64,000 nt of DNA from an uncultured Anaerolineales bacterium (lineage in GTDB: Bacteria > Chloroflexota > Anaerolineae > UBA1429), in contig CAYOUT010000003.1 in assembly GCA_964407215.1 (NCBI GenBank), positions 187,648 through 251,647 of the forward strand. Reading direction: 5' to 3'. Each line of letters begins with the position of its first letter. Positions within the stretch are counted from its first letter, which is position 1. The position numbers were made by a program, and so were the translations under genes. The notes under the pieces are model-generated. The model searched no databases. It had not been told where the DNA came from and saw only the letters and a program-made list of their open reading frames with translations. Below are positions 3,222 to 20,261 of the stretch, piece by piece.

Positions 3222-3247
3222 TGACGGTCTCCCCTCGATGGTGTGGG

Positions 3248-4201: not shown

Positions 4202-4461
4202 ACTATGTGCTAGACTCCACAATGAATGCGCCGCTAGAGGGTTCGTTAGCCTCCTGTAGGCTGTTGGCTCGCTCGGGGACTGTCAGGGCGAGCGATAAAG
4301 GGCTTCCCTCAGGATACACGATACATGTGCTCCATGCAAACTGCCATCTGTGAAAGAGCTTCATTTGACCTCCCTATATGCACAGGTACCATATACTCTA
4401 GCGATGTTGCTGCGGGTTCCTTATGCGGAAGCCGGCGAGTGTTGTTGGCCAGGAGCGGGTG

Positions 4462-5772: not shown

Positions 5773-5826
5773 TTCGACTCGTCGGTGTGTTACGCCGTGT
5801 GACGCCCGCCCCAGCCGACCGCGTAG

Positions 5827-6588
5827 ATGTCGGCGCTCACAGTCAGCCAAAGAACGACACCACGGAGCCCTATGATTTCACCTTCCGGCACAGCCCCCGA
5901 GAGCATCGGTACACGCAAAGAGAACTCACTCCATGCCGCGCTCAAGACCTGGTACTCGCGGCCGGGTGACCTTCTCGAGGCCCCAGTGGATGATTTTATC
6001 GTCGATATTCTGCGGGGCGATACGATCATCGAGATCCAGACGCGCAACTTTGGGGCGCTGAGGGCCAAGCTTGCGCAGCTTTTGGAGCGATACCCCGTTC
6101 GTCTGATCCACCCCGTCGCGCACGAGAAATGGATTGTGCGGCTGGCTGCGGATGGCCACACTCGCTTAGGTCGTCGCAAATCTCCCAAGCGGGGATCGGC
6201 TTTGGAGGTGTTTCGCGAGTTGGTCTATCTGCCGGAACTCTTGCTTCATGCCAACTTTTCGCTCGAAATAGTGCTCACGCAGGAGGAGGAGGTTCGTTGC
6301 CAGGACGGGCGGGGCAGTTGGCGGCGCCAGGGGTGGAGCATCCTGGATCGACGGCTACTCCAAGTGGTCGATTGTGTGGAGCTGAAGGATGTCGGCGCCT
6401 GTCGGTGCCTCCTGCCATCGTCTCTGTCTCAGCCCTTCACGAGCAGCGATCTGGCAGAGGCCCTGGGAGAACGGCGCGCTTTGGCCCAGAAGATGCTCTA
6501 CTGCTTGCGCAAAATGCATGTGGTACACACAGCCGGCAAGCGCGGGCGCTATCGGCTCTACACCGTGATACAACACAAAGGGGTCTAG
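5827..6588 (+). CDS. Hypothetical protein, putative PD-(D/E)XK nuclease fold with C-terminal winged-helix-like segment
   Basis: SLHAALK...VDILRGDTIIEIQT (D...ExQ variant motif); C-terminal FTSSDLAEALG...LYCLRKM...GKRGR. Start uncertain (5827 or 5872). Confidence 0.55.
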   Translation: MSALTVSQRTTPRSPMISPSGTAPESIGTRKENSLHAALKTWYSRPGDLLEAPVDDFIVDILRGDTIIEIQTRNFGALRAKLAQLLERYPVRLIHPVAHEKWIVRLAADGHTRLGRRKSPKRGSALEVFRELVYLPELLLHANFSLEIVLTQEEEVRCQDGRGSWRRQGWSILDRRLLQVVDCVELKDVGACRCLLPSSLSQPFTSSDLAEALGERRALAQKMLYCLRKMHVVHTAGKRGRYRLYTVIQHKGV

Positions 6589-6680
6589 CAGATGAGGCGG
6601 CTGTAGCCAAGCTTTCGCCTACGCACGGGTGCCGCCGGTTGCCTGCCAGGCCCCTTTTATACGTGTTGTCGATGTAGAGT

Positions 6681-7700
6681 CTAGAGCGCAGCTATAATCG
6701 CTTCCGCCATCTCGCGGGTGCCTACTGCTGTAGGATCGTTGCGGTCGGTCTTTAGGTCGTAAGTAACCTGTTTCCCCTCTGCGATAACCTTCTCCACTGC
6801 TCGGTCGATCCGATCCGCCGCGTCAATCTCGCCCAAGAAGCGCAGCATCAGTGTCCCACTGCGGATGGTTGCTGTGGGGTTGACTTTGTTGCGCCCGGTG
6901 TATTTGGGGGCAGAGCCGTGCACCGGCTCGAACACAGCGATATCGTCGCCAATATTGGCTCCCGGGGTCACCCCCAAGCCACCCACTAACCCAGCGCATA
7001 CATCGCTCACGATATCGCCATACAGGTTGGGCAATACCAGCACATCGTATTCGTGCGGTCTCTGTACAAGCTGCATACACATATTGTCCACGATGCGATC
7101 GTTAAAGTCGATGTCGGGATACTCGGCCGCCACCTGACGCGCAGTGTTCAAGAACAGCCCGTCCGTCAGCTTCATGATGTTGGCTTTGTGCACCGCGGTC
7201 ACCAGCTTGCGGCCGTTGGCTTGGGCGTATTCGAAGGCAAAGCGTACGATGCGCTCGCTGGCCTTGTGCGTGATGATACGAATCGCTTCCGCGGCTTGGC
7301 CGGGAATCACATCGTGCTCGATGCCAGAGTACAAGCACTCGGTGTTCTCGCGCACGACGATGAGGTCTACGCCACGATAGGGTGCGGGCACCCCTTCGAA
7401 GCTCTTGGCGGGGCGCAAGTTGGCGTACAAGTCCAGCTCCTTGCGAATGGCCACGTTGACGCTGCGGAAACCCTTGCCCACTGGTGTGGTGATAGGCCCT
7501 TTAATACCCACGCGGTTGCGCCGGATGGAATCCAGCACGTGCTCAGGCAAGGGTGTGCCGTATTTGTCGATGACGGCCTCGCCAGCCTCCTGAACATCCC
7601 AGTCGATGCGCACACTCGTCGCCTCGATGACTCGCCGCATAGCATCGGCTACCTCGGGCCCGATGCCGTCGCCGGGGATTAGCGTTACCGTGTACGTCAT
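6681..7700 (-). CDS. icd: Isocitrate/isopropylmalate dehydrogenase family protein (probable NAD-dependent isocitrate dehydrogenase)
   Basis: [44 protein letters not shown] motifs; co-transcribed with aconitase. Confidence 0.8.
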
Positions 7701-7732
7701 AGCTCATCCTCTCTTGTTTCGAGACTGTGATC

Positions 7733-9658
7733 TCAGGCTGTCGCCTTGATATAGTTCAACAAGCCGCCCGCGAGTATGATCCCAGTCTGACGTGCAGACA
7801 GGTCATAGTGCACGGCGATGTCGAACCCCCGTGTTTCATTGCGCACCACCAACGGGGTGCCAGCCTGTAGAGACTCGCGCACCCCATTCACACGCAACAT
7901 GTCGCCCTGTTGGCAGCGATCGTAATCGGCGGGGTCGGCAAAGGTCAGCGGCAAAATGCCAAAGTTGATGAGATTGGCCTCGTGAATCCGCGCAAAGCTC
8001 TTGGTGAGCACCGCTTTGACGCCCAGGTACATCGGCACCAGGGCGGCATGTTCCCGGCTCGAGCCCTGGCCATAGTTCTCGCCGCCCAACACAAAGCCGC
8101 CCCCCACTCTTTTGGCGCGCGAGGCGAACTCGGCGTCCAGCCTAAAGAAGGCGAACTCGCTCATGGCAGGGATATTGGAGCGGAGTGGCAGCACTTGCGC
8201 GCCGGCGGGCATGATATCGTCCGTGGAGACGTTGTCTCCGGCCACTAGAAGGATCTCCCCTTGTAGCTCGCTCTCGAGTGGGCCGCGGGTGGGTAGCGGC
8301 TTGATGTTCGGTCCACGCACAATCTCCACGCTTGAGCCATTCGCCAAAGGCGGTACGACCATGTTGTCGTCGAGCAGGAAGGACGCCGAAACGGAGATAG
8401 CCGGTGGCTCGCCCAAGGAGCGCGGATCTGTGAACACGCCGCGAACGGCTGCAGCTGCACACACTTGGGCGCTCGCGAGGTATACTTGGGCGTCAGCAGT
8501 GCCGCTCCGCCCGCGAAAATTGCGGTTGAAAGATCGGAGCGAGACCGCGCCGCTGGCCGGGGCTTGCCCCATGCCGATGCATGGGCCGCACCCCGCATCG
8601 AGGATACGCGCGCCTGCCGCAATCAGATCGGTTAGGGCGCCGCTTTGGGAGATCATGGTCAGCACTTGTTTGCTACCGGGGCTTACAGTGAGCGATACAT
8701 CCGGATGAACCGATTGGCCGCGGAGCATGGCGGCCACTGTCTCAAGGTCCTCGATGGAGGAGTTGGTGCAGCTTCCGATGCACACCTGGTTCACGGGTTG
8801 ACCGATCAGGTCGCGCACTGGTACTACATTGTCGGGACTGTGCGGGCAAGCCACCAGCGGCTCCAGTTGAGAGAGGTCAATCTCTATGGTCTCGTCATAC
8901 AACGCATCCACATCGGCTGATAGAGGCCGCCAGTCGCTCTCGCGCCCTTGTGCGGCCAGGAACTGACGCGTGATCTGGTCGCTCGGAAAGATCGAACTGG
9001 TGGCGCCCAACTCGGCCCCCATATTGGTGATAGTTGCACGCTCAGGAACACTGAGAGTCGCCACACCCGGGCCACCATATTCGACCACTTTGCCCACCCC
9101 GCCTTTGACGGAGAGTCTGCGCAGCAATTCGAGGATCACATCCTTGGCTGCGACCCAGGGGGGTAGCTCGCCGAGCAGGCGTACGTGCAGCACTTTGGGT
9201 GTCGTGATATAGAACGGTGCGCCGGCCATGGCCACAGCCACGTCCAGGCCGCCCGCGCCGATGGCCAACATCCCCAAGCCGCCACCGGTGGGCGTGTGAC
9301 TGTCGGAACCCAAGAGGGTCTTGCCTGGTGCACCAAAGCGCTCCAGATGCACTTGGTGGCAGATGCCATTGCCGGGCCGCGAAAAGTATAGGCCATAATG
9401 GGCGGCCACCGTCTGGAGATAGCGATGGTCGTCGGCGTTGCGGTAATCGGCTTGCAGCATATTGTGGTCCACATAGCTTACCGACAACTCTGCCTTGACG
9501 CGATCCAGACCCAACGTCTCGAACTGAAGATAGGCCATGGTGCCCGTGGCATCCTGGGTGAGCGTCTGATCGATGCGCAAGCCCATTTCCGCTCCCGGCT
9601 CCATGCGGCCGGATACCAGATGCTCTCGTATGATCTTGTGCGTGAGATTGTGGCCCAT
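7733..9658 (-). CDS. Aconitate hydratase (single-chain, short type)
   Basis: Start at MGHNLTHK (ATG 9658). QDATG, DHN, GICHQVH, DSHT, IGSCTN and CGPCIG [4Fe-4S] ligands; swivel domain with NYGQGSSREHAA. Confidence 0.9.
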   Translation of the reverse strand: MGHNLTHKIIREHLVSGRMEPGAEMGLRIDQTLTQDATGTMAYLQFETLGLDRVKAELSVSYVDHNMLQADYRNADDHRYLQTVAAHYGLYFSRPGNGICHQVHLERFGAPGKTLLGSDSHTPTGGGLGMLAIGAGGLDVAVAMAGAPFYITTPKVLHVRLLGELPPWVAAKDVILELLRRLSVKGGVGKVVEYGGPGVATLSVPERATITNMGAELGATSSIFPSDQITRQFLAAQGRESDWRPLSADVDALYDETIEIDLSQLEPLVACPHSPDNVVPVRDLIGQPVNQVCIGSCTNSSIEDLETVAAMLRGQSVHPDVSLTVSPGSKQVLTMISQSGALTDLIAAGARILDAGCGPCIGMGQAPASGAVSLRSFNRNFRGRSGTADAQVYLASAQVCAAAAVRGVFTDPRSLGEPPAISVSASFLLDDNMVVPPLANGSSVEIVRGPNIKPLPTRGPLESELQGEILLVAGDNVSTDDIMPAGAQVLPLRSNIPAMSEFAFFRLDAEFASRAKRVGGGFVLGGENYGQGSSREHAALVPMYLGVKAVLTKSFARIHEANLINFGILPLTFADPADYDRCQQGDMLRVNGVRESLQAGTPLVVRNETRGFDIAVHYDLSARQTGIILAGGLLNYIKATA

Positions 9659-9899
9659 GAGGGGTCCTTTCCTGATTATGCTGCTCGCCGCAGCTCGGCC
9701 TACAGCGTGGCATGATGTGTTGCGGGTCGGTGGCGTCTCATGGGCCGCCACCAGATAGGTCAGCACACAGACGCGCTATAGGATCCGTGAAAACGGCGGG
9801 GGTTGATCCTCCACGACGAGGGCATGGATACGAATATGGCCAACCGAGGAGAAAAGCCACCGACCTATTATGCACGAGGGCACTACGGAGTACAAATTG

Positions 9900-9928
9900 G
9901 GTTCCCGAGCCGCTACGCCTCGGGAACC
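9900..9928. repeat. 10-bp perfect inverted repeat (hairpin) between anti-sigma gene and aconitase
   Basis: GGTTCCCGAG-N9-CTCGGGAACC; no strong U-tract. Confidence 0.5.
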
Positions 9929-9942
9929 ATGCGGGGCGGTTT

Positions 9943-10548
9943 TCAGTGAGCGCGACGCCCGAGAGACCAGACTCGTGAGACAGCCTCACTCACGCGGACT
10001 CCCAGCTCACGCCACCCCTGGCTTGCCCGCGTGTCCCATGAGCTGAGACTGAGCAGCAGGCCGAGCCCGGCGCACACTGCGAATAGGCCACTCCAGATGG
10101 CCCAGAGCACTTGGCTATCCCGCAGGTCGTGCAAGGATTCCAGCCATGCGACTGCGGTGCTCACCCAAATCCCCACAGACCCTGCGGCAAAAGTGCTCCA
10201 ACTCTCCGAGAGCAGGCGCGCTGGAGGCAGCATCAAGATGGTTGCCAAGGCGGTGAGCAAGGTCAAAAGAGGCACTAAGACAGACCACGGCAGAGGCTGC
10301 CACGTCTCCTCGGCGGCAGCACGTCGGCTTTTAATAGATCGCATGACTCTGGTGTGCAACTCCGGTGGGACAGACTCCAGAGGCATACCTCGCAATGCAT
10401 CTTCCATCAAGTAGATCTGATAGAGGCGCTGACGGCACTGCGGGCATTGTCGCACGTGGGCTCGCAGGTGTTCATAGCGGGCTGCGGTCGGCTCACCATC
10501 GGCCACAAACTGGAGCAGGCCCTGTTGGATGGCTTCACATGGGGGCAT
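9943..10548 (-). CDS. Zinc-binding anti-sigma factor (zf-HC2) with transmembrane helices
   Basis: Start at MPPCEAIQ (ATG 10548); HVRQCPQC = HxxxCxxC; hydrophobic C-terminal helices; overlaps the end of the ECF sigma gene. Confidence 0.85.
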   Translation of the reverse strand: MPPCEAIQQGLLQFVADGEPTAARYEHLRAHVRQCPQCRQRLYQIYLMEDALRGMPLESVPPELHTRVMRSIKSRRAAAEETWQPLPWSVLVPLLTLLTALATILMLPPARLLSESWSTFAAGSVGIWVSTAVAWLESLHDLRDSQVLWAIWSGLFAVCAGLGLLLSLSSWDTRASQGWRELGVRVSEAVSRVWSLGRRAH

Positions 10549-11149
10549 ACATATCTTCCTTTTCGAGACGCAGTGTTTTGGCCAGAATCTTGCGCGCCCG
10601 GTTGAGGTGGGCCTTGACGGTCCCGATAGGTATGGAAAGCAGCTCAGCGATCTCTCGATAGCCCAGTTGGTACCGATAGAACAATGCGATGACGAGTCGG
10701 TACTTTTCTGGCAATCGTCCGACGGCCGCCCAGATAGCCGCATCCCTCTCGCTACGCATGGCTACGTTGGCGGGATCGGGCTCCCGCGCCGCCAGATAAT
10801 CTAGTGCCTTGTCACTATCCACTACGTTGAGCTGTGCGCGCAGTGTGCGGTGCCTGTTCAGACAAGTGTTCACAGAGATCCGGTAGAGCCAGGTGCTGAA
10901 TTTCGAGTCGCCCCGAAAGGTGGGCAGAGCGCGCCAGACGCGCAAGTAGATCTCTTGCGCAGAGTCCAAGGCCTCATCCCGGTTGCGCAGGATGCCATAG
11001 GCCATGTTGTACACGCTCGTCTGCGTCTTGAGCACAAGCTCGGAAAACGCTATCTCGTCCCCTCGCTGGCAACGCGCCAACAACTCGGGAGAAGGATCGC
11101 TCACAGTGCCAGCCCCCGCCCGCCAATCATCGGGTATGAGAATAACCAC
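10535..11149 (-). CDS. ECF RNA polymerase sigma factor
   Basis: Region 2 (AQEIYLRVWRALPTFRGDSKFSTWLYRISVN) and region 4 (LPEKYRLVIALFYRYQLGYREIAELLSIPIGTVKAHLNRAR). Confidence 0.93.
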   Translation of the reverse strand: MVILIPDDWRAGAGTVSDPSPELLARCQRGDEIAFSELVLKTQTSVYNMAYGILRNRDEALDSAQEIYLRVWRALPTFRGDSKFSTWLYRISVNTCLNRHRTLRAQLNVVDSDKALDYLAAREPDPANVAMRSERDAAIWAAVGRLPEKYRLVIALFYRYQLGYREIAELLSIPIGTVKAHLNRARKILAKTLRLEKEDMYAPM

Positions 11150-11152
11150 ATA

Positions 11153-11626
11153 TTACTCGAACCGTCCCAGGCCTGGATCTTTCTCTATTGGAAGCTCACT
11201 GATCGCCCGAAAGAGATCCTCATGCTCTTTGAGCACGTCGGGCAGCTCTTCGTCCGCCATGGAGCCTGTCAAAGGCGCGTCCTTTTCGGGCACTGCGCTA
11301 GACGTCAGGAAGTAGATCAGGATCATACCCAACCCGACGAACAGCGGGATCAGCCCTCCCAACAGCCACGCGCCCGCTCCCAGAGTGGCCAGCCCCAGCA
11401 GCAGCGCTGCCCCGCTCATCGCGGTAATCACGCCGCCCCACAATACTCCTCGGCTTCCGTGCCGTCGCATGCTCGTGTGGCGGCTCAGATCCTCTAGGGA
11501 ATACCCCAACTGCGCCAGGGCGACGCGCTCTTTGTAAGCGATGTACCGATTCATCGTGATAAAGCCCAACGCCGCGATGAGCAGCAGCATGGGCATCAGG
11601 ACGACGATCACTAGTTCCGGAGTCAT
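11153..11626 (-). CDS. Membrane protein, DUF6249-like, first gene of the ECF operon
   Basis: TM helix followed by RYIAYKERVALAQLG, then two more TM helices (GLIPLFVGLGMILIYFL) and an acidic tail. Confidence 0.65.
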   Translation of the reverse strand: MTPELVIVVLMPMLLLIAALGFITMNRYIAYKERVALAQLGYSLEDLSRHTSMRRHGSRGVLWGGVITAMSGAALLLGLATLGAGAWLLGGLIPLFVGLGMILIYFLTSSAVPEKDAPLTGSMADEELPDVLKEHEDLFRAISELPIEKDPGLGRFE

Positions 11627-11692
11627 CCGGACCTCCTCTTAAGCGCCGATTGGCATCGTTACGTGGCGTATGCAGCACATACTCAACATATG

Positions 11693-11720
11693 AGACACGG
11701 CTCGATAGCCGAGGGTTACA
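11693..11720 (-). promoter_or_regulatory. Candidate ECF-sigma promoter of the DUF6249-sigma-antisigma operon
   Basis: Minus strand TGTAAC-N16-GTGTCT(CA); AAC to TCT spacing matches the sigmaE-type GGAACTT-N16-GTCTAA. Confidence 0.4.
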
Positions 11721-11727
11721 GATCAAC

Positions 11728-14196
11728 CTAGCTGAGCGATTCCTCCAGCAAGTCAAGCGGTACCGGGACCCCGCCATCTATAGGCAGCGCCAACGTGAAC
11801 ACCTCGTGCGCTCGTACGTCGTGGGTCCAGCAACGGTCCAGAGCGGGGGAGGTCAGCGTTATACGCGTCGGTTCACCCGACGCCTCGTACCCTCGCACCA
11901 GCAGGCGGTCTCCATCCTCTGCCAGCTTGACGGTGCTGAGCACGATACTCTCTGGGGCGGCTCGAAGAAGCGATAAAGTGTGCCACGGGCCCTCGTGTGG
12001 TGTGGCGGGAGCCGCTATCAAGGGCTCTTGCAGCTCGTAGCTGCGTCGCCCCGGCGAGACTGCACGCCAATCGCCCGTGTGAGGAATCAGGACGTAACGC
12101 ACCACTTGCTCGCCTTGATCGACGAAATGATATGAAACGCCGGGCACTACCCGTCGTGGATCGTGGAACGCGTAAATCGGGCTGCGAAGCACACTCAACC
12201 GTAGCTCGCCGTCCAACGCATCGTAGCCGTATTTGCTATCGTTCAGCAGGCAGAGGCCGCGGCGGCCGGAAGTGGCTTGGCCGGTGAGGTCCACCCAACC
12301 CTGGCAAGGCTCCTCCTCCCCGTTGGCCTGTCGCGACACCCAGCCGTAAGGCGCCGATGAGGCTACGACGCCCCCCGAGATGGCCAGCGGAAAGGCCAGC
12401 TTGAGCATCTTGAACTGCTCGTGCCAATCTACCGTCATAGTGACCTCGATGGCTGCTGATCCTGTACGTAGAGCGTACTCTTGCACGATGCTCGATGATC
12501 CCCACGTGCTGCGCACCCTCAACGCTGCTCCAGTGGGGCCGTTGTGGAGGAGTTCCGCTGGGCTTACAGACTGGAAGGAGCCGAGCACATCTCGGAAATT
12601 GACTATATCATGGCTCCAGGTATCGCTGTCGTCGTGGATTACTAGCGGCAGGCAGGCCGGGCCGGAGAGCAATTCCTCGTGTCGCTGCAAATCACGGATG
12701 CTCGCCAGCGCGCCCGTCTCGGGATCCACACGTAGGCGATAGTACTCGTTCTCGATGGTGTCAGCGAACACTGTCGGCGGCTCTTCTGCTGGCGGATCCG
12801 TCTCGGGGATCGAGACGTACAATGGGCAGGCTCCGAGCGCTGGCACCGTCACCAGGGCCTCGACGTGTGCGATGTATGTGTTGAGATCCAGCTCTACGTC
12901 TAGCAACTGGCAAGGCACCAGGTTGCCATCCGTATCCTCGATGCGCGGTGTGCCCGGATAGCGCTCTCCGCGAAAATCGTGGCGCCAACCGCCCATGGGT
13001 AGTGCCAACCGCACCGTATCGGTGCGTTCCCAGGGAAGAGTGTTCCACACCAGCACGGGGTGGTCGCGATCCAATACCTCAACCTTGGCCGCCAATGCGG
13101 TGAGAGCTTGGTTTTGTACCGAGATGGCTAAGGCTCTTGCGCGCTCATAGTCCTCCCAGGCTTCGTCGTACGACTCCCGGATGGACGTCCCGGCCATGAT
13201 GTCGTGGAACTGGTTGAACAGTACCTCCTCCCAGGCCTTTTGAAGCTGCGGCTGGGCGCTCGGTGTATCGCACAGCAGGGTGGCCCACGACGCCAGCCTC
13301 TCCGCCTGCATGAGGCCGTGCTCTGCGTAGCGGTTCTCTTGCTTCACTCGCGATAGGGCTGTGTAACACCCTCGCGCGTGGTGCTGCAGTTCGTCGTGCA
13401 ACACCGGCCAATCGCTGGACAGTTGCCGCACACGATCAAAATAGGCATCCGGCGAGGAGAATACAGGGATCGCCCCGACATCCGCGTCCAGGGTGTCGAC
13501 GAGAGCCTGTACATTGCGCCGCGTGGGCCCTCCGCCATGGTTGCCTACGCCGTAGAAACACATCACCATCGGCAAGCCCTCAGGCGCTTCGTCGGCCGCG
13601 GCGCGCATCCGCTCTAACACATCGGCATTGTCCGGGCTGCCATAGTGTAGCGGCGGGCGGCAAGCCAACACTCTCGCGCCTCCCGGCGCTTCCCACCAGA
13701 AGGGGCGATTCGGCAGGTCTTTCTCGTGGGGGCCTGGCCTAAAGAAAACATAGTGTTCTAGCCCCGCTAGCTTGAGGAGTTGTGGCAGCGTCCCCGCGTG
13801 CCCAAAGGAATCCACATTGTAGCCGACGCGTGCGCGCCGCCCAAAGTGCTCTTGTAGGAAGCGCTGTCCGTACAGGCCGTGGCGCGCAAAAGACTCTCCA
13901 CTGGGGATATTGCAGTCGGGCTGTAGCCACCAGCCGTTCACGAGCACCCAACGTCCCTCTGCCACGGCCTGTTGGATGGCGGCGTACAACTCCGGATCAT
14001 CTTCTTGCACCCAGCGGTAAGTGACAGCTCCACCGCTTGTGAAAACGTAAGCGTCGAACTCTCGAATCAGAGCGATGGCGGTGTGATAGGTGGATTGTAC
14101 CTCGGCGCGTCCCTCGCTGAGGGGCCATAGCCATACGGGGTCGATGTGAGCGTTGCCAACCATATGCACGGTGACTCGGTCCGGTCGTTCCGTCAT
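11728..14196 (-). CDS. GH38 alpha-mannosidase family glycoside hydrolase
   Basis: GNAHIDPVW (Zn ligands), NVDSFGH (nucleophile Asp), YGVGNHGGGPT, NQFHDIMAGTS; RBS GGAGGA before ATG 14196. Confidence 0.92.
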   Translation of the reverse strand: MTERPDRVTVHMVGNAHIDPVWLWPLSEGRAEVQSTYHTAIALIREFDAYVFTSGGAVTYRWVQEDDPELYAAIQQAVAEGRWVLVNGWWLQPDCNIPSGESFARHGLYGQRFLQEHFGRRARVGYNVDSFGHAGTLPQLLKLAGLEHYVFFRPGPHEKDLPNRPFWWEAPGGARVLACRPPLHYGSPDNADVLERMRAAADEAPEGLPMVMCFYGVGNHGGGPTRRNVQALVDTLDADVGAIPVFSSPDAYFDRVRQLSSDWPVLHDELQHHARGCYTALSRVKQENRYAEHGLMQAERLASWATLLCDTPSAQPQLQKAWEEVLFNQFHDIMAGTSIRESYDEAWEDYERARALAISVQNQALTALAAKVEVLDRDHPVLVWNTLPWERTDTVRLALPMGGWRHDFRGERYPGTPRIEDTDGNLVPCQLLDVELDLNTYIAHVEALVTVPALGACPLYVSIPETDPPAEEPPTVFADTIENEYYRLRVDPETGALASIRDLQRHEELLSGPACLPLVIHDDSDTWSHDIVNFRDVLGSFQSVSPAELLHNGPTGAALRVRSTWGSSSIVQEYALRTGSAAIEVTMTVDWHEQFKMLKLAFPLAISGGVVASSAPYGWVSRQANGEEEPCQGWVDLTGQATSGRRGLCLLNDSKYGYDALDGELRLSVLRSPIYAFHDPRRVVPGVSYHFVDQGEQVVRYVLIPHTGDWRAVSPGRRSYELQEPLIAAPATPHEGPWHTLSLLRAAPESIVLSTVKLAEDGDRLLVRGYEASGEPTRITLTSPALDRCWTHDVRAHEVFTLALPIDGGVPVPLDLLEESLS

Positions 14197-14281
14197 CTCT
14201 ACTGAATCCTCCATAGCACATGATGCGAATCATGGTGTCGAGGTCTAATACCTGAGGCTATTATACTTGATCACACTATCC

Positions 14282-14311
14282 TTGACACCTACAGGATGCT
14301 CAAAGTAGAAT
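14282..14311 (+). promoter_or_regulatory. Sigma70-type promoter for the RraA-family gene, back-to-back with a minus-strand TATAAT (14260-14265) for the GH38 gene
   Basis: TTGACA-N18-TAGAAT on +; ATTATA at 14260-14265 reads TATAAT on -. Confidence 0.6.
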
Positions 14312-14379
14312 CGCAGTGTTCTCGTCTTGTGCAGACTAGAACCACAGTGCGCGGCAACCACTCTAACCGGAGGACGGGC

Positions 14380-15087
14380 ATGTCGGAGAGCGAAAAAGAC
14401 TATTCGGTACTCGAATTGCAGGCTCGCTGGGACAAGATCCGTGTGGCCAACATCTATGACACGTTAGATAAAATGGGTTACAGCAATCAGTGTCTTGACC
14501 TGGGCATCCGCCCCCTTTTGCCGCATCAGCATCTGGCGGGGAAAGCAGTCACTGTCTCCGGCAGCCGCGACCCACGCACCAACGAGGAGATTCAGGCCCA
14601 GCAGGGCGAACCCGGCTTTGCCAGCCTGCAGGAACTGTTGTTCCCCGGCGCTGTGGTGGTGGTGGAGGGCGGGGGCGAGCCGTGGACTGGCAAGTTCGGC
14701 GAGATGACGAGCTGGCACCTCAAACAGGGAGGCGCCAAAGGGATCGTCATCGATGGCCATATCCGCGACTATCTCGGGCTCATCGAGATTCCAGATTACA
14801 CCGTCTGTGTGCGTGGCACTTCACCTGTCGAATCGTACCGTCGCTGGCGCATCCACCGCACCAACAAAGTCATCGCTCTGCCGGGAACCCTCACCAGCCA
14901 GGTGCGTGTAGCGCCCGGCGACTGGATCGTCGGTGAGGCCGACGGTGTCATAGTGATTCCCCAAGAGATATCCATGGAGGCCTTGATCAAAGCGGAAGAG
15001 ATAGAGAGGAAGGAAGAGGCAACTCGGCGCGATCTGGCTGCGGGTGTGCCCTTTGACGAGGTGTTCAGGCGTTACGGTAGGGCTTGA
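14380..15087 (+). CDS. RraA family protein / 4-hydroxy-4-methyl-2-oxoglutarate-type aldolase
   Basis: ANIYDTL, GEMTSW..KQGGAKGIVIDGHIRD, GDWIVGEADGVIVIP; RBS GGAGG before ATG 14380. Confidence 0.85.
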   Translation: MSESEKDYSVLELQARWDKIRVANIYDTLDKMGYSNQCLDLGIRPLLPHQHLAGKAVTVSGSRDPRTNEEIQAQQGEPGFASLQELLFPGAVVVVEGGGEPWTGKFGEMTSWHLKQGGAKGIVIDGHIRDYLGLIEIPDYTVCVRGTSPVESYRRWRIHRTNKVIALPGTLTSQVRVAPGDWIVGEADGVIVIPQEISMEALIKAEEIERKEEATRRDLAAGVPFDEVFRRYGRA

Positions 15088-15101
15088 CCCGTGAAAAGCA
15101 G

Positions 15102-15127
15102 AGGGCGGCTCTCGCGAGAGTCGCCCT
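15102..15127. terminator. Bidirectional terminator-like hairpin between convergent genes
   Basis: AGGGCGGCTCT-CGCG-AGAGTCGCCCT, flanked by AAAA upstream and TTGTATT downstream. Confidence 0.65.
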
Positions 15128-15184
15128 TGTATTCTGGCCCTATACCATTTGTATGTATCGATAGCGGGCTTGTGGCGCTGCGTT

Positions 15185-15442
15185 CTAACGCTCCTTGGTG
15201 CCGCATTCGGGCGCCAACAAGCTGTCCAGCAACGGCTGGAGTCCCGCTTGCCAACGAGCCCAATGCGTGGGTATCTCTTTGGGCTCGACGAGTTGAAAGA
15301 TCATTTCACCATCGGCGGGACGGCTGACGGGGAAAGGCACTCTTCCCGTGTAGCGATGGATCCAGTAGCAGACTCCCGCGATGAAGGCGATGGGTCCCAG
15401 CAATCCAAGAAGCACTCCTTTAACGAACTTGGCCACCTTCAA
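15185..15442 (-). CDS. Small single-TM hypothetical protein (85 aa), paralog of 15420-15635
   Basis: TTG start with GGGGG RBS; hydrophobic helix then YWIHRYTGRVPFP; overlaps the upstream small ORF. Confidence 0.65.
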   Translation of the reverse strand: MKVAKFVKGVLLGLLGPIAFIAGVCYWIHRYTGRVPFPVSRPADGEMIFQLVEPKEIPTHWARWQAGLQPLLDSLLAPECGTKER

Positions 15443-15635
15443 TCGCCCCCTCTATTCTGCTGACGAGCCTATCCACCTGTGCAGCCGCTTCGCCCACCTC
15501 CACCAAGACCCCTTTTGACAAGCATGGAATTACTACTTTCCCGGTGGACATATAGAGCCACAAGAAGGCCACCGGAAAGGCCAGGATGTTAGCCCCCGCC
15601 CACACGCCTGAGAGGAACCGTAATAGTTTGATCAT
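15420..15635 (-). CDS. Small single-TM hypothetical protein (71 aa)
   Basis: ATG 15635 preceded by GGAGG; MIKLLRFLSGVWAGANILAFPVAFLWLYMSTGKVVIP...; this is the C-terminal part of track ORF 15420..15998. Confidence 0.65.
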   Translation of the reverse strand: MIKLLRFLSGVWAGANILAFPVAFLWLYMSTGKVVIPCLSKGVLVEVGEAAAQVDRLVSRIEGAIEGGQVR

Positions 15636-16103
15636 ACGCCGCCTCCTGCCCCGGTTTGTATGTCCTCCAACTGACGGATAACTGATGAACGGTGCACTTT
15701 TCGCCCCTCGGGCGCGCCCTCCGCGATTGCGCTCATACCCGCCGGGATGTGCACGCCAAAGAACAGCTCGCTCGCCCCCGACAGGAAGAAGTCTTGTTGG
15801 CCTCAGCACCTTGTTAGCACCAAGGACGACATACTGCCGCTCATCAAAGCGTCGCGTGGATGTCAGAGCGAGTTCATCCGCCCCCGCTATCCATGTCAGA
15901 GCGTTATTCGTGTGAGCGCCTACACTGCTGATCGGTGTTGCATATTGCAGCACCGGTTGCGACGATCGCATCTTAACATGGCGCGGTGGGGCGGTCAAGC
16001 AGAGGGGAGGCTGTCATCGTGCCGGCCTTGCGGCTCGAACGCGGTTGCGCTAGGATGGTGTTCGTGAGATGACACGAATCATATCACCCCGGGAGTCAAT
16101 GCC

Positions 16104-17372
16104 ATGCCCGACCGTACCGAGATCGCGGATCTTCTCGTCAGGACCGAATCCTACCTAGTGGACGTGCTGCTGCCCTTCTGGATCGAGCGCTCGCCGGACC
16201 GCAAGATGGGCGGGTTCCTCACCTATTTCGATCGGCAAGGGTCCCCGACGGGCGAGACCACCAAAACCTTCCTGATGCAAATCCGGATGCTCTTCACCAT
16301 GGCCAGCGCCCACCGAGCGGGCTATGGCGGTGGGCGCTGTGCCGAACTCTCTGACATGGGGGCGGGTTTTGTTCTGGAGCATTATTGGGATCGCGAATAC
16401 GAGGGTTGGCTCTGGATCGCCGATCGCTATGGCCGCATAACCAACGCCAGCAAAGTGGGATATGGGCAGTGTTTCGGCGTCTATGCCTTTAGCGAATATG
16501 CCCTCGCTACGGGGGATTCGCGTGGCCGCGAGGCGGCGGAGCGAACCTACGCTGCGATAGCGAAACACATGGCCGACACGCGTTACGGCGGCTATCTGGA
16601 GATCATGCGCCCCGACTGGCAACCCGAACGCCCGGGCAGATACGGCGGCGATCGCAAGAGCTTTGATGTGCATATGCACATGATGGAGGCACTTACCACC
16701 CTGTACGAGTTGACCGGCAGCGCCACGCATCGCCGGCGCCTGCTGGAGGTCATCGATCTGCTTATCTATCGCATGCTGGAGCCGGAGGGGCGCGGCGGAT
16801 ATATGCAGTTTGGGCTCGATTTTCAACCCCTGCCGGCTATTCTCTTTGAGGTGGAGTGGGGCAGCGATGAGGAGCCGGTGGGCGGAGTCGCGCATCCGTT
16901 GGATCTGACATCCTACGGGCACAATATCGAGTTCGTCTGGTTGCTGCTGCACGCCGCCGACATACTGGGGATTCCTCGCACAAACTATGCGGAGATCGTG
17001 CGCAGGATCAGCGATCAATGCGTGCAATATGGTATCGACTGGGAATTCGGCGGTGTGTACGTCGATGGCCCCTTTGAGGGGATGGCGTCGAACCAGCACA
17101 AGCAATTCTGGCAGCACGCGGAGGTGCTGGTGGGAATGTTGGACGCCTACGCTCTGCTGGGGGATGAGCGATACTGGCAGGCGTTTCGCAATGTGTACGA
17201 TTTCGTCATGACCCGATTCATCAACCTGCCCGCGGGCGGCGAGTGGTATGCCCTGCTGGACCGTCAGGGCACCCCAGTGTGGGACTACTTGGGTCATGCG
17301 TGGAAGATCAGCTACCATACCGTGCGCTCCATGGTACAGGTGATCGCGCGCCTGCGAGCCCTGCTACAATGA
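16104..17372 (+). CDS. AGE family epimerase/isomerase (N-acylglucosamine 2-epimerase / cellobiose 2-epimerase-like)
   Basis: LLPFW, MQIRMLF (Arg), DVHMHMMEA, TSYGHNIEFVWLL, FWQHAE, WKISYHTVR: the conserved His/Glu/Arg set of the (alpha/alpha)6 AGE family. Confidence 0.9.
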   Translation: MPDRTEIADLLVRTESYLVDVLLPFWIERSPDRKMGGFLTYFDRQGSPTGETTKTFLMQIRMLFTMASAHRAGYGGGRCAELSDMGAGFVLEHYWDREYEGWLWIADRYGRITNASKVGYGQCFGVYAFSEYALATGDSRGREAAERTYAAIAKHMADTRYGGYLEIMRPDWQPERPGRYGGDRKSFDVHMHMMEALTTLYELTGSATHRRRLLEVIDLLIYRMLEPEGRGGYMQFGLDFQPLPAILFEVEWGSDEEPVGGVAHPLDLTSYGHNIEFVWLLLHAADILGIPRTNYAEIVRRISDQCVQYGIDWEFGGVYVDGPFEGMASNQHKQFWQHAEVLVGMLDAYALLGDERYWQAFRNVYDFVMTRFINLPAGGEWYALLDRQGTPVWDYLGHAWKISYHTVRSMVQVIARLRALLQ

Positions 17373-17403
17373 GATTGCGATACTATGACGACGCACATAA
17401 AAG

Positions 17404-17432
17404 TTGACACCGCGTCTTCACGCCCTTATAAT
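17404..17432 (+). promoter_or_regulatory. Consensus sigma70 promoter driving the FMN riboswitch leader
   Basis: Perfect TTGACA-N17-TATAAT about 20 nt upstream of the aptamer. Confidence 0.85.
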
Positions 17433-17453
17433 AGGCTCAACTGAATACGAACA

Positions 17454-17590
17454 GCCTTCGGGGCAGGGTGAGACATCATGTCAATTCCCGATCGGCGGTA
17501 TGGCAGAGCATCTCTGCCGAGCCCGCGAGCCAGTATTGGCAGATCCGGTGCAAAGCCGGAGCCGACGGTACAGTCCGGATGAGAGAAGGC
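17454..17590 (+). ncRNA. FMN riboswitch (RFN element)
   Basis: GCCTTCGGGGCAGGGTGA...ATTCCCGATCGGCGGTA...AGCCCGCGAGCC...GATCCGGTGCAAAGCCGGAGCCGACGGTACAGTCCGGATGAGAGAAGGC matches the RFN consensus; P1 GCCTTC/GAAGGC. Confidence 0.95.
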
Positions 17591-17623
17591 ACAGCGTCTA
17601 TCAAGGCGAATTGTGAGTGTGCG

Positions 17624-17654
17624 AGCCCCGTTGCTGTTCAGTAACGGGGTTTTT
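17624..17654 (+). terminator. Intrinsic terminator of the FMN riboswitch expression platform
   Basis: CCCCGTTGC-TGTTCA-GTAACGGGG followed by TTTTT. Confidence 0.85.
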
Positions 17655-17656
17655 CT

Positions 17657-18478
17657 ATGCGAGCAGTCGATAATTCCAAGGACCATGTGAGGCGTGTCTC
17701 AAAACAGCGCTGCGACCTCCGATCGAGCGGTGTACACGCCTTGATTCCGGCTGTGTTGCTCCTCCTAGTGTTGTTGTGGGAGCTTGTGGTTCGCTGGGCG
17801 GGCTACCCTGCTTTCTTTTTGCCCACACCAGGGCTCGTCTTTAGCCGATTCGTCTCGGCCTGGCAGAGTAACACGCTGCAGATCCATATCTGGATTACGC
17901 TGCGCGAAGTGTTTGGCGGCCTAGCGCTGGGGCTGTTCGTCGCCATCGTCTTGGGCTACCTACTGGCCAAGTCGCGCACGCTCGAGCGGATCGTAACACC
18001 GTATATTGTGTCCGCCCAGGCGATCCCTATCGTTGCCTTGGCGCCTCTCCTCGTGATCTGGTTCGGCACAGGCATCCTCTCGAAGGTGCTGGTGTGCGCT
18101 CTGACTCTCTTTTTCCCTGTGCTCATCAATACAATCGTCGGTGTGCGCAGTGTGGATCGTGAGCTGCTGGAGCTCATGCGCTCGCTCCAGGCCTCGCGCT
18201 GGCAGATCTTTCGTTATCTCGAGTTACCCGCCGCGCTTCCGGTGCTCTTGGGCGGACTCAAGGTAGGCGTGACCCTTTCGGTTATTGGCGCCGTGGTGGG
18301 CGAGTTTGTGGGTGCGGACCGCGGGCTGGGGTTCCTCGTCAACCTCGCCAGGGGTCTATTTGATACGCCTTTGATGTTCGTGGCTTTGTTCGTCCTCATG
18401 GCGATCGCCCTGGGGCTTTATCTGACCGTCTCGGTTTTGGAATCCCGGCTGTTACGATGGCGCTGGACTGAGGATTAG
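17657..18478 (+). CDS. ribX: ABC transporter permease (SsuC/TauC-like), probable riboflavin transporter RibX
   Basis: Six-TM BPD permease with EAA-like loop (ELMRSLQASRWQIFRYLELPAALP); first gene after the FMN riboswitch; start uncertain. Confidence 0.8.
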   Translation: MRAVDNSKDHVRRVSKQRCDLRSSGVHALIPAVLLLLVLLWELVVRWAGYPAFFLPTPGLVFSRFVSAWQSNTLQIHIWITLREVFGGLALGLFVAIVLGYLLAKSRTLERIVTPYIVSAQAIPIVALAPLLVIWFGTGILSKVLVCALTLFFPVLINTIVGVRSVDRELLELMRSLQASRWQIFRYLELPAALPVLLGGLKVGVTLSVIGAVVGEFVGADRGLGFLVNLARGLFDTPLMFVALFVLMAIALGLYLTVSVLESRLLRWRWTED

Positions 18479-18515
18479 CACGGTTCGGCCCAATCTCTGT
18501 GTTGTGGAGGATCCT

Positions 18516-19502
18516 GTGAAACGTTACCACATGTCGCTGTTGTCACTAGCTGTTCTGCTGTGTTTGCTCGCAGCGTGCAGCCCCGTCTCCGTGTCTCCCC
18601 AAGAAGAGGGGTATCGCGATGTGTCTATCGCGATGGGCTTTGTTCCCAACGTGCAATTCACACCCATGTACGTGGCCCTGGAGCGTGGGTACTTTGAGGA
18701 AGAAGGTCTCAATATCGAGCTGGATTATGGTATGGAGACCGACTTGCTACAACAAGTGGGGGCCAACAAGGTGCCTTTTGCTATTGTCAGCGGCGATCAG
18801 ACTATCTTGGCGCGGGGCAACGGCCTGCCGGTGACTTATGTCTTTAACTGGTATCGGCGCTTTCCTGTTTGTATCGTCTCTATGGCCAGCTCTGGCATTA
18901 CCGAGCCAGCGGATCTTGTGGGGCGCACGGTGGGCACCACAGCATTGGAGGGTGCTAGCTACTTGGGATGGCTCGCCTTCCTCAAACAGGTGGAAATCCC
19001 CGCTGCGGACATCGACCTACAGGTGATCGGTTACACTCAAGTGCCCAGCCTGGTCGAGGGCCGTGTGGATGCCGCCATCTCTTACGCTATGAACGAGCCT
19101 GTCCAGCTCAAAGCGGCCGGCCACGAGGTCAATGTGTTCTACCTCGATAGCTACACCCATCTCGTCTCAAACGGCATCGTGACCAACGATATGACTATCG
19201 AGGAAGAGCCCGAACTGGTGGAAAGAGTTGTGCGAGCCTTCCGGCGAGGCCTACAAGATACCATCGACGATCCCGATGCTGCGTTTGAGATCACCCGCAA
19301 GGCGATCCCCGAGATGGACGATGACACTGCTGTGCTGCAGCGGGCAGTGCTTGAGGAGTGTGTGGTGTTCTGGCGCGGTGATAACCTGGGCGCCAGTGTA
19401 CCGGAGCACTGGAAAGAGTCGGTGGAGCTGCTCCAGGAGATCGGTCTGCTCGAGATCGACGTAGATCCCGACGGATTGTACACTAACACCTTTGTCGAGT
19501 GA
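18516..19502 (+). CDS. ribY: NMT1/THI5-like substrate-binding lipoprotein, probable riboflavin-binding RibY
   Basis: GTG start after GGAGG; lipobox LLAAC; PNVQFTPMYVALERGYF THI5-type motif; FMN-riboswitch context. Confidence 0.8.
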   Translation: MKRYHMSLLSLAVLLCLLAACSPVSVSPQEEGYRDVSIAMGFVPNVQFTPMYVALERGYFEEEGLNIELDYGMETDLLQQVGANKVPFAIVSGDQTILARGNGLPVTYVFNWYRRFPVCIVSMASSGITEPADLVGRTVGTTALEGASYLGWLAFLKQVEIPAADIDLQVIGYTQVPSLVEGRVDAAISYAMNEPVQLKAAGHEVNVFYLDSYTHLVSNGIVTNDMTIEEEPELVERVVRAFRRGLQDTIDDPDAAFEITRKAIPEMDDDTAVLQRAVLEECVVFWRGDNLGASVPEHWKESVELLQEIGLLEIDVDPDGLYTNTFVE

Positions 19503-19505
19503 TGC

Positions 19506-20261
19506 ATGTCTCAGCCCATTCTCATCGCCAGGCACGTCCAGATGGTCTTTTCCTCGCCCGAAGCGGAGCTGGAGGCGCTGGCCGAGGCCGACTTGGCCGT
19601 GAACGCTAACGAGTTTGTGTGTGTCATCGGGCCGTCGGGGTGTGGCAAGTCCACTTTGCTTCGCATCCTCGGCGGCCTGGTGAGGCCCACCAGCGGGCAT
19701 GTGATATACAAGGGAAGGGCCTTGACGGAGCCGCAGCGGAGCATCGGCTATGTATTCCAGCGCTCCAACCTGATGCCCTGGCGCTCATCTTTGGCCAACG
19801 TGATGCTTCCGCTGGAGCTCGCCGGCACGCCGCGCGCTGTGGCCGAGGTGCGCGCGCGGGAGATGCTCGAGTTGGTGGGACTGACGGATTTCGTGCGTGC
19901 TCTACCACGCGATCTCTCGGGTGGTATGCGTCAGCGGGTGGCACTGGCCCGCGCTTTGATCCAGGATCCCGATGTGTTGTTGCTCGACGAGCCTTTTGGT
20001 GCGCTGGATGCGTTGACACGCGAGCGTATGACGTGGGAGTTGCTGCGCATCTGGCAGGCGCGTCGCAAGACGGTGATCATGGTGACGCACAATATCCAAG
20101 AGGCGGTCTTTTTGTCGGATCGTGTGCTGGCGATGAGTCCCCGGCCCGGACGTATCGAGGCCGAGGTGGTAATCGACCTCCCTCGACCGCGTTCCGAGGA
20201 AGACCTCTATACGAGGCGCTTCACCGAGTTGGCGCGCGTCCTACGCGACACGCTCCGCTAG
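19506..20261 (+). CDS. ABC transporter ATP-binding protein (SsuB/TauB-like)
   Basis: GPSGCGKST, LSGGMRQR, LLLDEPFGALD, VTH. Confidence 0.93.
   Translation: MSQPILIARHVQMVFSSPEAELEALAEADLAVNANEFVCVIGPSGCGKSTLLRILGGLVRPTSGHVIYKGRALTEPQRSIGYVFQRSNLMPWRSSLANVMLPLELAGTPRAVAEVRAREMLELVGLTDFVRALPRDLSGGMRQRVALARALIQDPDVLLLDEPFGALDALTRERMTWELLRIWQARRKTVIMVTHNIQEAVFLSDRVLAMSPRPGRIEAEVVIDLPRPRSEEDLYTRRFTELARVLRDTLR

Follow-up and report, generated by a model that had tools for sequence, protein, structure and literature searches.

Glycoside hydrolases of family GH38 are recognized by a metal-binding HxD motif, a nucleophilic Asp within D-x-F-G-H and a QFHD motif, and MngB, the mannosylglycerate-phosphate hydrolase, is a member of the same family. 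For RraA-like proteins, Mazurkewich et al. reportedly established in 2014 that D-X20-R-D (or G-X20-R-D-X2-E/D) is the metal-binding and catalytic motif. The PDB entries 8H1K-8H1N, whose title says only “N-acylglucosamine 2-epimerase”, are taken here to represent the mannose 2-epimerase of Runella slithyformis. A catabolic RraA-family protein has been described in Flavobacterium sp. UMI-01, where FlDet serves as a 2-keto-3-deoxy-glucarate dehydratase/decarboxylase (PMC8563752). Meanwhile, in vitro work has demonstrated that mannose can be degraded oxidatively via mannonate and KDG (PMC6901390), and in haloarchaeal mannan clusters an RraA gene adjoins the ManD genes (PMC10963439).

The locus described here belongs to a window of 64,000 nucleotides (the whole stretch of DNA that was analysed) from an uncultured Anaerolineales bacterium, and harbours genes for a GH38 alpha-mannosidase, an RraA-like protein and an AGE-superfamily enzyme. 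A sequence-only reading had assigned the three to one dedicated pathway.

Organization of the locus

Table 1. Features of the locus and its flanks (window positions).
Feature	Position	Strand	Basis or remark
Left-hand synteny block travelling with GH38: DUF6249, ECF sigma, zinc anti-sigma, aconitase	7733..11626	-	Pfam
GH38 alpha-mannosidase, short form	11728..14214	-	828 aa as ORF; Pfam domains and motifs
Overlapping divergent sigma-70-like promoter candidates, GH38 (-) / RraA (+)	14260..14311		Consensus scan
Long-form RraA-like protein, 235 aa	14380..15087	+	PF03737; predicted divalent-metal 2-keto-3-deoxy-aldonate aldolase
Membrane microprotein gene, 85 aa (micro85), convergent with RraA	15185..15442	-	ORF and ribosome-binding site
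Paralogous microprotein gene, 71 aa (micro71), divergent from AGE	15420..15635	-	ORF and ribosome-binding site
AGE-superfamily enzyme, mannose 2-epimerase-like clade by sequence, 422 aa, monocistronic	16104..17372	+	PF07221
Right-hand boundary: consensus promoter 17404-17432, FMN riboswitch 17450-17594	17404..17594	+	Promoter 12/12; RF00050, 99.6 bits
NMT1-type ABC transporter genes, driven by promoter and FMN riboswitch	17657-20261	+	Transporter domains

The ORFs and domains of the three enzymes were found as previously claimed (Table 1), with refined start codons for two of them. For GH38, Met7 (ATG 14196), which has GGAGGA ahead of it, is the most likely start, and the homologues align from residues 7-13; the RraA-like protein most likely starts at ATG 14380, likewise behind GGAGGA, which yields a product of 235 aa, the homologues being 231-243 aa long. 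The N-termini of all three enzymes were inspected by eye and no hydrophobic signal-like segment was seen in any of them, in agreement with the absence of signal peptides noted before.

The GH38 and RraA genes are divergent, and the gap from RraA to AGE is occupied by two microprotein genes and ∼470 bp. Both microproteins that had been placed ahead of AGE are real ORFs; they are, however, encoded on the minus strand. Since opposite-strand genes split RraA from AGE, and since AGE is followed by a separate promoter and riboswitch, the three enzyme genes constitute three transcription units and not one operon.

The overlapping divergent promoter candidates were placed by the consensus scan exactly where they had been proposed. 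TTGACA-18-TAGAAT lies at 14282-14311(+) and GTGTCA-17-TATAAT at 14288-14260(-), scoring 11/12 and 10/12, respectively, and their -35 boxes overlap; altogether five promoter-like sites were found in the region versus 1.6 expected. Comparison of the intergenic regions of the genomes sharing the GH38-RraA arrangement showed no shared or conserved operator, a CTTGAC-like box alone recurring in three of the five.

The GH38 and AGE-family enzymes

All four GH38 Pfam domains, namely Glyco_hydro_38N (PF01074, 197.9 bits), Alpha-mann_mid (PF09261, 68.2), 38C (PF07748, 111.8) and 38C2 (PF17677, 27.9), score above cut-off, and the motifs H23-I-D25 (HID), D135-SFGH and Q345-FHD are present. Judging from family and motifs, the enzyme would hydrolyse alpha-mannosides in the cytoplasm. 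Its best solved relatives are the cytosolic Ams1/MAN2C1-type mannosidases (PDB 6LZ1, 7VQO), with which it shares the catalytic N-terminal, middle and C-terminal domains (E 1e-62 to 1e-68) and a predicted cytoplasmic location. Unlike them, it lacks the N-terminal region of ∼280 residues (828 vs ∼1100 aa), the alignment beginning at about residue 280 of their sequences. As to mannosylglycerate, which had been suggested as an example of the substrate, the MngB equivalog NF007331 gave 104.5 bits where its cut-off is 1138, with a match limited to residues 14-499, and the genome, 95% complete, yielded no mannosyl-3-phosphoglycerate synthase (PF09488).

The AGE-family protein (PF07221, 151.7 bits) aligns with 8H1K over 414 residues, i.e. 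over the full length with one small gap (465 bits, E 2.7e-138), and shares with it the GHN-EF and YH catalytic-histidine motifs and an N-terminal Arg. Cellobiose 2-epimerases score no more than 153 bits, the EpiA, AGE and mannose-isomerase equivalogs remain far under their cut-offs, and proteins 69-73% identical to the window enzyme carry the JGI name “mannose 2-epimerase”. By sequence, the enzyme thus belongs to a mannose 2-epimerase-like clade and not to the cellobiose 2-epimerase, GlcNAc 2-epimerase or mannose isomerase type, and its closeness to the 8H1K clade suggests that it would interconvert D-mannose and D-glucose. It differs from the presumed Runella enzyme in the phylum of its source and in having no conserved partner genes: AGE orthologs occur in five of the 25 genomes of the family, and elsewhere they lie next to MutS, a racemase, an ion exchanger and an MFS gene. 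The proposed sugar epimerisation is in keeping with the clade.

The RraA-like protein and its genomic partners

The AlphaFold model of the RraA-like protein (pLDDT 79) predicts an RraA-like fold with long-form N- and C-terminal helices, and a Foldseek search retrieved 3NOJ, 3K4I, 5X15 and 2C5Q at TM 0.68-0.73, short RraAs reaching only ∼0.5. The resemblance to HMG/CHA aldolase (3NOJ) extends over the full-length fold (TM ∼0.68) and includes an acidic C-terminal helix as well as the aligned Arg-Asp dyad with a carboxylate 21 residues before it. The metal/catalytic motif [D/E]-X20-R-D is thus kept, E108-X20-R129-D130 aligning with D102...R123-D124 of the aldolase, and divalent-metal pyruvate-enolate chemistry is predicted for the window protein too. 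However, the two share only ∼22% identity, the first metal-site position is held by Glu instead of Asp, and the orthologs are surrounded by aldonate dehydratase and sugar transporter genes, not by those of aromatic ring cleavage. The score for the LigK/PcmE equivalog is far below its cut-off (TIGR02798, 60.2 vs 304.5), that for NF006731 is below cut-off as well (67.7 vs 179), and no lig or pcm genes were found in any of the 84 ortholog neighbourhoods.

These 84 species-level loci were examined within a subfamily of at least 120 sequence clusters, and the metal/catalytic motif is invariant across all of their RraA orthologs. In 51 of them a sugar-acid dehydratase gene, either of the enolase superfamily (28 loci) or of the UxuA family (23 loci), is located immediately upstream on the same strand, with gaps of 3 nt to ∼300 nt. 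Within the dehydratase-linked set, 86 positions are invariant at a level of 97% or more, and the window protein keeps 80 of these. Aldonate dehydratases and sugar ABC transporters are the conserved partners of the orthologs, and glycoside-forming enzymes are not among them. No dehydratase was found within 10 kb of the window gene, and the orthologs of both types sit elsewhere in the genome (UxuA at G000:C1:331649-332632, enolase type at C19:38920-40059).

The window protein does appear to be a genuine class II aldolase or lyase serving sugar catabolism. Because of the dehydratase upstream in 51 of the 84 loci and the preserved motif, we predict it to be a metal-dependent 2-keto-3-deoxy-aldonate aldolase rather than one acting on a keto-acid aglycone. 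It would act as a divalent-metal pyruvate-forming lyase, converting 2-keto-3-deoxy-aldonates (KDG-type) to pyruvate and an aldehyde, where Glu108 and Asp130 would bind the metal and Arg129 would stabilise the enolate of pyruvate. The earlier idea that this protein is an aldolase is in part borne out; the dehydratase context suggests another reaction than the one once proposed, and nothing points to aglycone cleavage.

By described function, FlDet is comparable in that it too belongs to the RraA family and has a 2-keto-3-deoxy sugar acid as its catabolic substrate (PMC8563752). Its substrate is nevertheless dicarboxylic and becomes decarboxylated, whereas the orthologs considered here are partnered with aldonate dehydratases, which makes aldol cleavage more likely for the window protein. 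The ortholog loci also parallel the non-phosphorylative Entner-Doudoroff-type and oxidative mannose routes (Thermoplasma AldT-ManD-KDG aldolase; PMC6901390), as a dehydratase is followed by an aldolase that would release pyruvate and an aldehyde. The known KDG aldolases, however, are class I enzymes of the DHDPS/NAL family, not metal-dependent proteins of the RraA fold, and in the window the dehydratase is not adjacent. One must also bear in mind that the genome encodes a KDG-kinase-like protein next to an Eda-type aldolase, so that a further aldolase would not be indispensable.

Conservation of gene order

Gene order was compared in 25 genomes of the family and 80 further species. RraA orthologs are present in 14 and GH38 orthologs in 16 of the family genomes, GH38 occurring without RraA in six and RraA without GH38 in four, but the GH38-RraA-AGE trio is adjacent only in the genome of the window, which, together with the three transcription units, disagrees with a dedicated pathway. 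The GH38 and RraA genes adjoin each other in only four of the 25 family genomes and in one additional locus (L044), which contains the whole block except AGE. In the RraA tree, these five loci all belong to a single clade of nine rows, the remaining four of which have a broken pair, and the pair is absent from ∼70 other RraA loci with long flanks. Conservation of the pair, proposed earlier as a check, is thus weak and does not extend beyond close kin.

The flanking genes show a similar mosaic. The micro85 gene has been kept in 13 loci on the downstream side of the RraA ortholog and adjoins GH38 where RraA is missing (L121, L124); micro71 lies beside AGE in one relative (G014, L113), and AGE adjoins microprotein genes in three genomes only. 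The DUF6249/sigma/aconitase side, which is kept in nearly all genomes, is found next to GH38 orthologs in L118-L126, L021, L027, L031 and L044. Such patterns probably reflect an ancestral block of the order aconitase / anti-sigma / sigma / DUF6249 / GH38 / RraA / micro85 / micro71 / (AGE) / FMN-riboswitch ABC transporter that would have been broken at every junction, in differing relatives.

Discussion

The explanation that we consider reasonably probable is that GH38, RraA and AGE, with the functions predicted above, are neighbouring cytoplasmic carbohydrate genes, transcribed separately and kept together by gene order inherited within one Anaerolineae family, and do not represent a pathway unit.

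Several observations count against gene order as the only factor. A short GH38 (40% identical) resides within UxuA-RraA-AKR operons of three species (L085, L109, L112), an independent arrangement; proximity of GH38 and RraA has thus come about on at least two occasions, a hint that the two are functionally linked. Co-regulation could act through the overlapping divergent promoters, and a mannose-related role can be read into each of the three enzymes. A possible, although distinctly less probable, alternative is a loose but real mannose-use module, in which GH38 would free mannose, AGE would turn a part of it into glucose, and a further part would proceed by oxidation to mannonate, to KDG by a UxuA-type dehydratase and to cleavage by RraA, with GH38 and RraA co-regulated from the divergent promoter region. 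Consistent with it, seven of the UxuA-RraA-AKR operons begin with a GH99-like gene that matches endo-alpha-mannosidase structures (E 1e-15), the UxuA-like partner matches only mannonate dehydratases in the PDB, and the clade of AGE, the RraA-ManD neighbours of haloarchaea (PMC10963439) and the in vitro route (PMC6901390) fit as well. The module is, however, difficult to reconcile with the frequent separation of GH38 from RraA, four of the nine closest lineages included, with the lack of a conserved operator, and with a window that contains neither a dehydratase nor a sugar dehydrogenase. Moreover, as these genomes carry up to seven GH38 genes, it is not very unlikely that the two genes came together twice by chance. 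If a mannose link exists, RraA would likely act on a 2-keto-3-deoxy acid derived from the sugar itself.

More doubtful still is a broader proposal, according to which the Anaerolineae long-form RraA orthogroup would be an undescribed metal-dependent KDG-type aldolase that completes a kinase-free oxidative mannose route (release by GH38/GH99-like enzymes, then mannose to mannonate, KDG, and pyruvate plus glyceraldehyde), the GH38-RraA pair of the window being a co-regulated remnant.

That the RraA-like protein regulates an RNase E/G-type ribonuclease, as does E. coli RraA or Streptomyces RraAS2, seems highly improbable. Its top sequence match among solved structures is indeed S. coelicolor RraAS2 (5X15), but the RraA equivalog NF006875 gave 33.4 bits against a cut-off of 136, the protein is longer than RraA (235 vs ∼160 aa), the metal/catalytic motif is invariant, and operons behind dehydratases would be unexpected for a global RNA-decay regulator. 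Least credible of all is the original mannosyl-conjugate model (mannosylglycerate or a mannosyl sugar acid, with the aldolase cleaving the keto-acid aglycone and the epimerase taking the released sugar), for although GH38 includes MngB and none of the three proteins has a signal peptide by eye, it is contradicted by the MngB score, the missing synthase, the non-conserved trio and the partners of the RraA orthologs.

The cluster does not hold as a three-gene pathway and is itself ordinary. The RraA-like subfamily, on the other hand, is well populated and highly conserved, and in over half of the loci examined the gene is tied to a preceding aldonate dehydratase gene from one of two unrelated superfamilies. 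The result is a concrete substrate hypothesis, cheap to test, for a family whose function, apart from aromatic catabolism and the regulation of RNase E, has long been unclear; if true, it would bring a class II aldolase into the non-phosphorylative routes for sugar acids.

Organisation of the GH38, RraA and AGE genes

The source, an Anaerolineae MAG (G000; 3.47 Mb in 41 contigs, 95% complete), carries the three genes as they had been described in the sequence-only reading: the GH38, RraA-like and AGE domains were all found, and the starts of the first two genes were refined to 14196 and 14380. The best solved relatives of the GH38 protein, in which the HID, DSFGH and QFHD motifs were found, are cytosolic alpha-mannosidases of the Ams1 type; since these are aligned only from about their residue 280, the window enzyme represents a short form. 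Homologue alignments begin at residues 7–13 and GGAGGA lies ahead of Met7, hence the true start of this gene is probably that at 14196. The assignment of the RraA-like gene is based on the same GGAGGA sequence ahead of its ATG and on the length of its homologues (231–243 aa). When judged by eye, none of the three N-termini is signal-peptide-like, in agreement with the earlier description. A second GH38 paralog, with 33% identity in the N-terminal domain and an open frame of 981 aa, was observed in the window (∼44659–45783, minus strand), and a second, more distant RraA-like gene is located elsewhere in the genome (G000:C2:210240-210701; PF03737, 58 bits).

Features of the GH38/RraA/AGE region and candidate partner genes on other contigs (C#) of the source genome
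Feature	Position	Strand	Remarks
GH38 alpha-mannosidase, short form	11728-14214	-	four GH38 domains, all present
Promoter candidate GTGTCA-17-TATAAT	14288-14260	-	promoter scan
Promoter candidate TTGACA-18-TAGAAT	14282-14311	+	promoter scan
RraA-like gene, 235 aa	14380-15087	+	ORF originally from 14296; GGAGGA before ATG 14380
Microprotein gene	15185-15442	-	ORF with ribosome-binding site, between RraA and AGE
Microprotein gene	15420-15635	-	ORF with ribosome-binding site, between RraA and AGE
AGE-superfamily gene	16104-17372	+
Consensus promoter, 12/12	17404-17432	+	downstream of AGE
FMN riboswitch, 99.6 bits	17450-17594	+	Rfam; after 17404-17432 promoter
Best enolase-type ortholog	C19:38920-40059		48%
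Best UxuA ortholog	C1:331649-332632		59%
PfkB kinase-like gene next to Eda-type aldolase	C2:75302-77042

GH38 and RraA are divergently oriented, and the promoter scan placed a site for each strand exactly where an overlapping divergent promoter region had been proposed. A comparison of the spacers of five genomes (∼140–380 bp long, columns 39% identical on average) revealed no conserved operator, with only a −35-like box recurring. The AGE gene had been said to follow two microprotein genes; these are indeed present, but both lie on the minus strand, and ∼470 bp of non-coding DNA separates them from AGE. The latter is followed by the promoter and FMN riboswitch that drive an NMT1-type ABC transporter, the riboswitch being the only match in the Rfam search of 11000–18000. 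It follows that AGE is monocistronic and stands apart from the genes downstream, and the region of the three genes is not an operon. The downstream segment (17404–20261) comprises, in this order, the promoter, the FMN riboswitch, a permease, an NMT1/THI5-type binding protein and an ATPase, and probably encodes a riboswitch-controlled, riboflavin-related ABC importer.

Conservation of gene order

Neighbourhood conservation, put forward as the decisive check of the proposed pathway, was assessed in 24 genomes of the same family beside G000. RraA orthologs (62–78% identical) were found in 13 of these, GH38 orthologs (53–63% identical) in 15 and AGE orthologs (68–70% identical) in 4. The adjacent divergent GH38-RraA pair is present in only three (G003, G009 and G022), and all three genes are adjacent only in G000 among the genomes compared. 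In G001, G012, G015 and G021 the GH38 and RraA genes reside on separate contigs, with kilobases of flanking sequence devoid of the partner, while G002, G008, G014, G017, G018 and G024 harbour GH38 without an RraA ortholog and G004, G007, G010 and G011 harbour RraA without a GH38 ortholog. Adjacency of GH38 to a block of DUF6249, ECF sigma, zinc anti-sigma and aconitase genes (window 7733–14214; extracted loci L118–L126), which adjoins it almost always, is stabler than its adjacency to RraA.

A synteny hub is formed by the pair of paralogous genes for membrane microproteins. They lie beside RraA in 13 loci, directly flank GH38 with no RraA between in G008 and G002 (L121, L124), and adjoin AGE, in differing orientations, in G000, G001 and G014 (L113). 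Elsewhere, the neighbours of AGE are MutS, Asp/Glu racemase, Na/Ca exchanger, GNAT and MFS genes. A locus of a further species (L044) retains the full block in window order, with aconitase at one end and the ABC transporter and MFS gene at the other, but lacks AGE. The overall picture is of one ancestral block that has since been broken at every junction. With divergent genes, microproteins on the opposite strand and a gene order broken in relatives, a three-gene pathway unit is not supported.

A wider scan, limited to one genome per species, yielded 80 loci with RraA orthologs (60–78% identical), nearly all from Anaerolineae or Chloroflexota. A divergent GH38 ortholog lies beside RraA in three of them (L033, L040, L044) and AGE was found nearby once; in L085, L109 and L112 a distant short GH38 (∼40% identical) is located on the same strand, 1.8–2.7 kb downstream of RraA. 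In the maximum-likelihood tree the divergent arrangements fall within one clade of nine rows, the other four of which have lost the adjacency, while the co-directional ones fall within a separate, well-supported clade. Thus GH38-RraA proximity, though rare, arose at least twice. Since a single genome of this group may hold as many as seven GH38 genes, this repeated proximity is weak evidence of a functional tie. Five of the RraA orthologs (L047, L050, L052, L063, L099; 63–69% identical to the window protein) are on contigs binned as Bathyarchaeia, Verrucomicrobia and Solibacteraceae, which are probably mis-binned Chloroflexota sequences or recent transfers.

Dehydratase partners of RraA orthologs

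ORFs of the loci were clustered, representatives were annotated and genes were counted by tblastn in 84 loci, namely the 80 scan loci, three that the family search contributed, with at least one of them repeating a locus of the scan, and the window. Two ORF families (F5 and F17) were rejected as neighbour genes, being antisense shadows of RraA and UxuA. Immediately upstream of RraA and on the same strand, 28 of the 84 loci encode an enolase-superfamily acid-sugar dehydratase, which comes closest to the NCBIfam models of galactonate and gluconate/galactonate dehydratases, and 23 encode a UxuA-family dehydratase, whose PDB matches are mannonate dehydratases only. Between dehydratase and RraA, the spacing varies from an overlap of 3 nt to ∼300 nt.

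The enolase-type loci (n = 28) also contain a GntR/FCD regulator (13), a sugar-binding protein (23) and a fused ABC permease (24). The UxuA-type loci (n = 26) form a longer operon with an aldo/keto reductase (24), a creatininase-family hydrolase (18), a flavodoxin-like protein and an APH-like kinase (16 each) and, less often, a divergent enolase-type dehydratase (11), a KDG-kinase-like PfkB protein (10), a sulfatase (8), a GH99-like protein (7) that matches bacterial endo-alpha-mannosidase structures (E 1e-15), or a short GH38 (3).

Such pairing, with two dehydratase families that are unrelated and in many cases nothing more than a transporter and a regulator added, classically marks a dehydratase-aldolase route. 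On the grounds of this pairing, the RraA-like protein is predicted to be a metal-dependent 2-keto-3-deoxy-aldonate aldolase yielding pyruvate and an aldehyde.

In six loci (L061, L075, L104, L085, L109, L112; ∼7000–17500) the operon, conserved in these other Anaerolineae, comprises GH99-like, in some cases URO-D-like, UxuA-like, RraA-like and aldo/keto reductase genes, continues with a creatininase-family hydrolase or a 287-aa protein, sometimes the short GH38, and the flavodoxin-like and APH-like kinase genes, and is accompanied by the divergent enolase-type dehydratase, KDG-kinase-like gene and sulfatase. It is a candidate for an undescribed glycan and sugar-acid route.

Sequence and fold of the RraA-like and AGE proteins

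In the profile alignment with the HMG/CHA aldolase 3NOJ, Glu108 of the RraA-like protein falls on Asp102, and its Arg129-Asp130 pair coincides with Arg123-Asp124. We take D-X20-R-D to be the metal and catalytic motif of that aldolase (Wang 2010, Mazurkewich 2014); the window protein differs from it in having Glu for Asp at the first position, a conservative change. The motif and a further 86 positions hardly vary among the dehydratase-linked orthologs, and the window protein keeps 80 of the 86, the six changes being conservative and confined to the C-terminal helices. Its AlphaFold model (pLDDT 79) matches the long-form structures 3K4I, 3NOJ, 5X15 and 2C5Q over the full length and short RraAs over the core only. 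All equivalog models, including RraA and LigK/PcmE, were far under their cut-offs.

A literature search for an RraA-family 2-keto-3-deoxy-aldonate aldolase found none, only FlDet, an RraA-family enzyme acting on 2-keto-3-deoxy-glucarate (PMC8563752), and an unassigned RraA gene adjoining ManD genes in haloarchaeal mannan clusters (PMC10963439). The two offer some precedent for the predicted activity.

The AGE protein belongs to a clade spread over several phyla at 67–70% identity, and proteins 69–73% identical to it bear the JGI name "mannose 2-epimerase". It aligns over 414 residues (465 bits) with PDB 8H1K, presumably the mannose 2-epimerase of Runella slithyformis, as against at most 153 bits with cellobiose 2-epimerases, and falls far short of the cellobiose 2-epimerase, GlcNAc 2-epimerase and mannose isomerase equivalog models.

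Possible partners in the source genome and the proposed role of the RraA-like protein

In G000 the RraA-like gene stands apart from its usual dehydratase partners. With 17 enolase-superfamily matches, four UxuA-like genes and seven GH38 matches in 3.5 Mb, the investment of this genome in sugar-acid dehydratases and mannosidases is unusually heavy. Around the best UxuA ortholog (L136, G000:C1:323000-341000, at 2232–14712) lie genes for a Gfo/Idh/MocA oxidoreductase, an aldehyde dehydrogenase, an MBL-fold protein and a pair of aldo/keto reductases, of which one carries fused 4Fe-4S domains. This stretch of L136 lacks an aldolase, and the RraA-like enzyme could serve its UxuA gene set in trans. 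Five families of the UxuA-type operon (UxuA, creatininase-like, F13, sulfatase, PfkB kinase) are represented by homologues dispersed over different contigs, the GH99-like protein has a weak match only (28%), and no homologue of the aldo/keto reductase, flavodoxin-like or APH-like families was found in G000 at the thresholds used.

The proposal that the region processes a mannosyl-conjugate such as mannosylglycerate, with RraA cleaving a keto-acid aglycone, is disfavoured. The notion that RraA has a real substrate survives in altered form: its ortholog context is that of a real sugar-catabolic lyase, and the protein would act on a 2-keto-3-deoxy acid formed from the sugar itself by dehydratases encoded elsewhere. 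Mannose may be the common theme.
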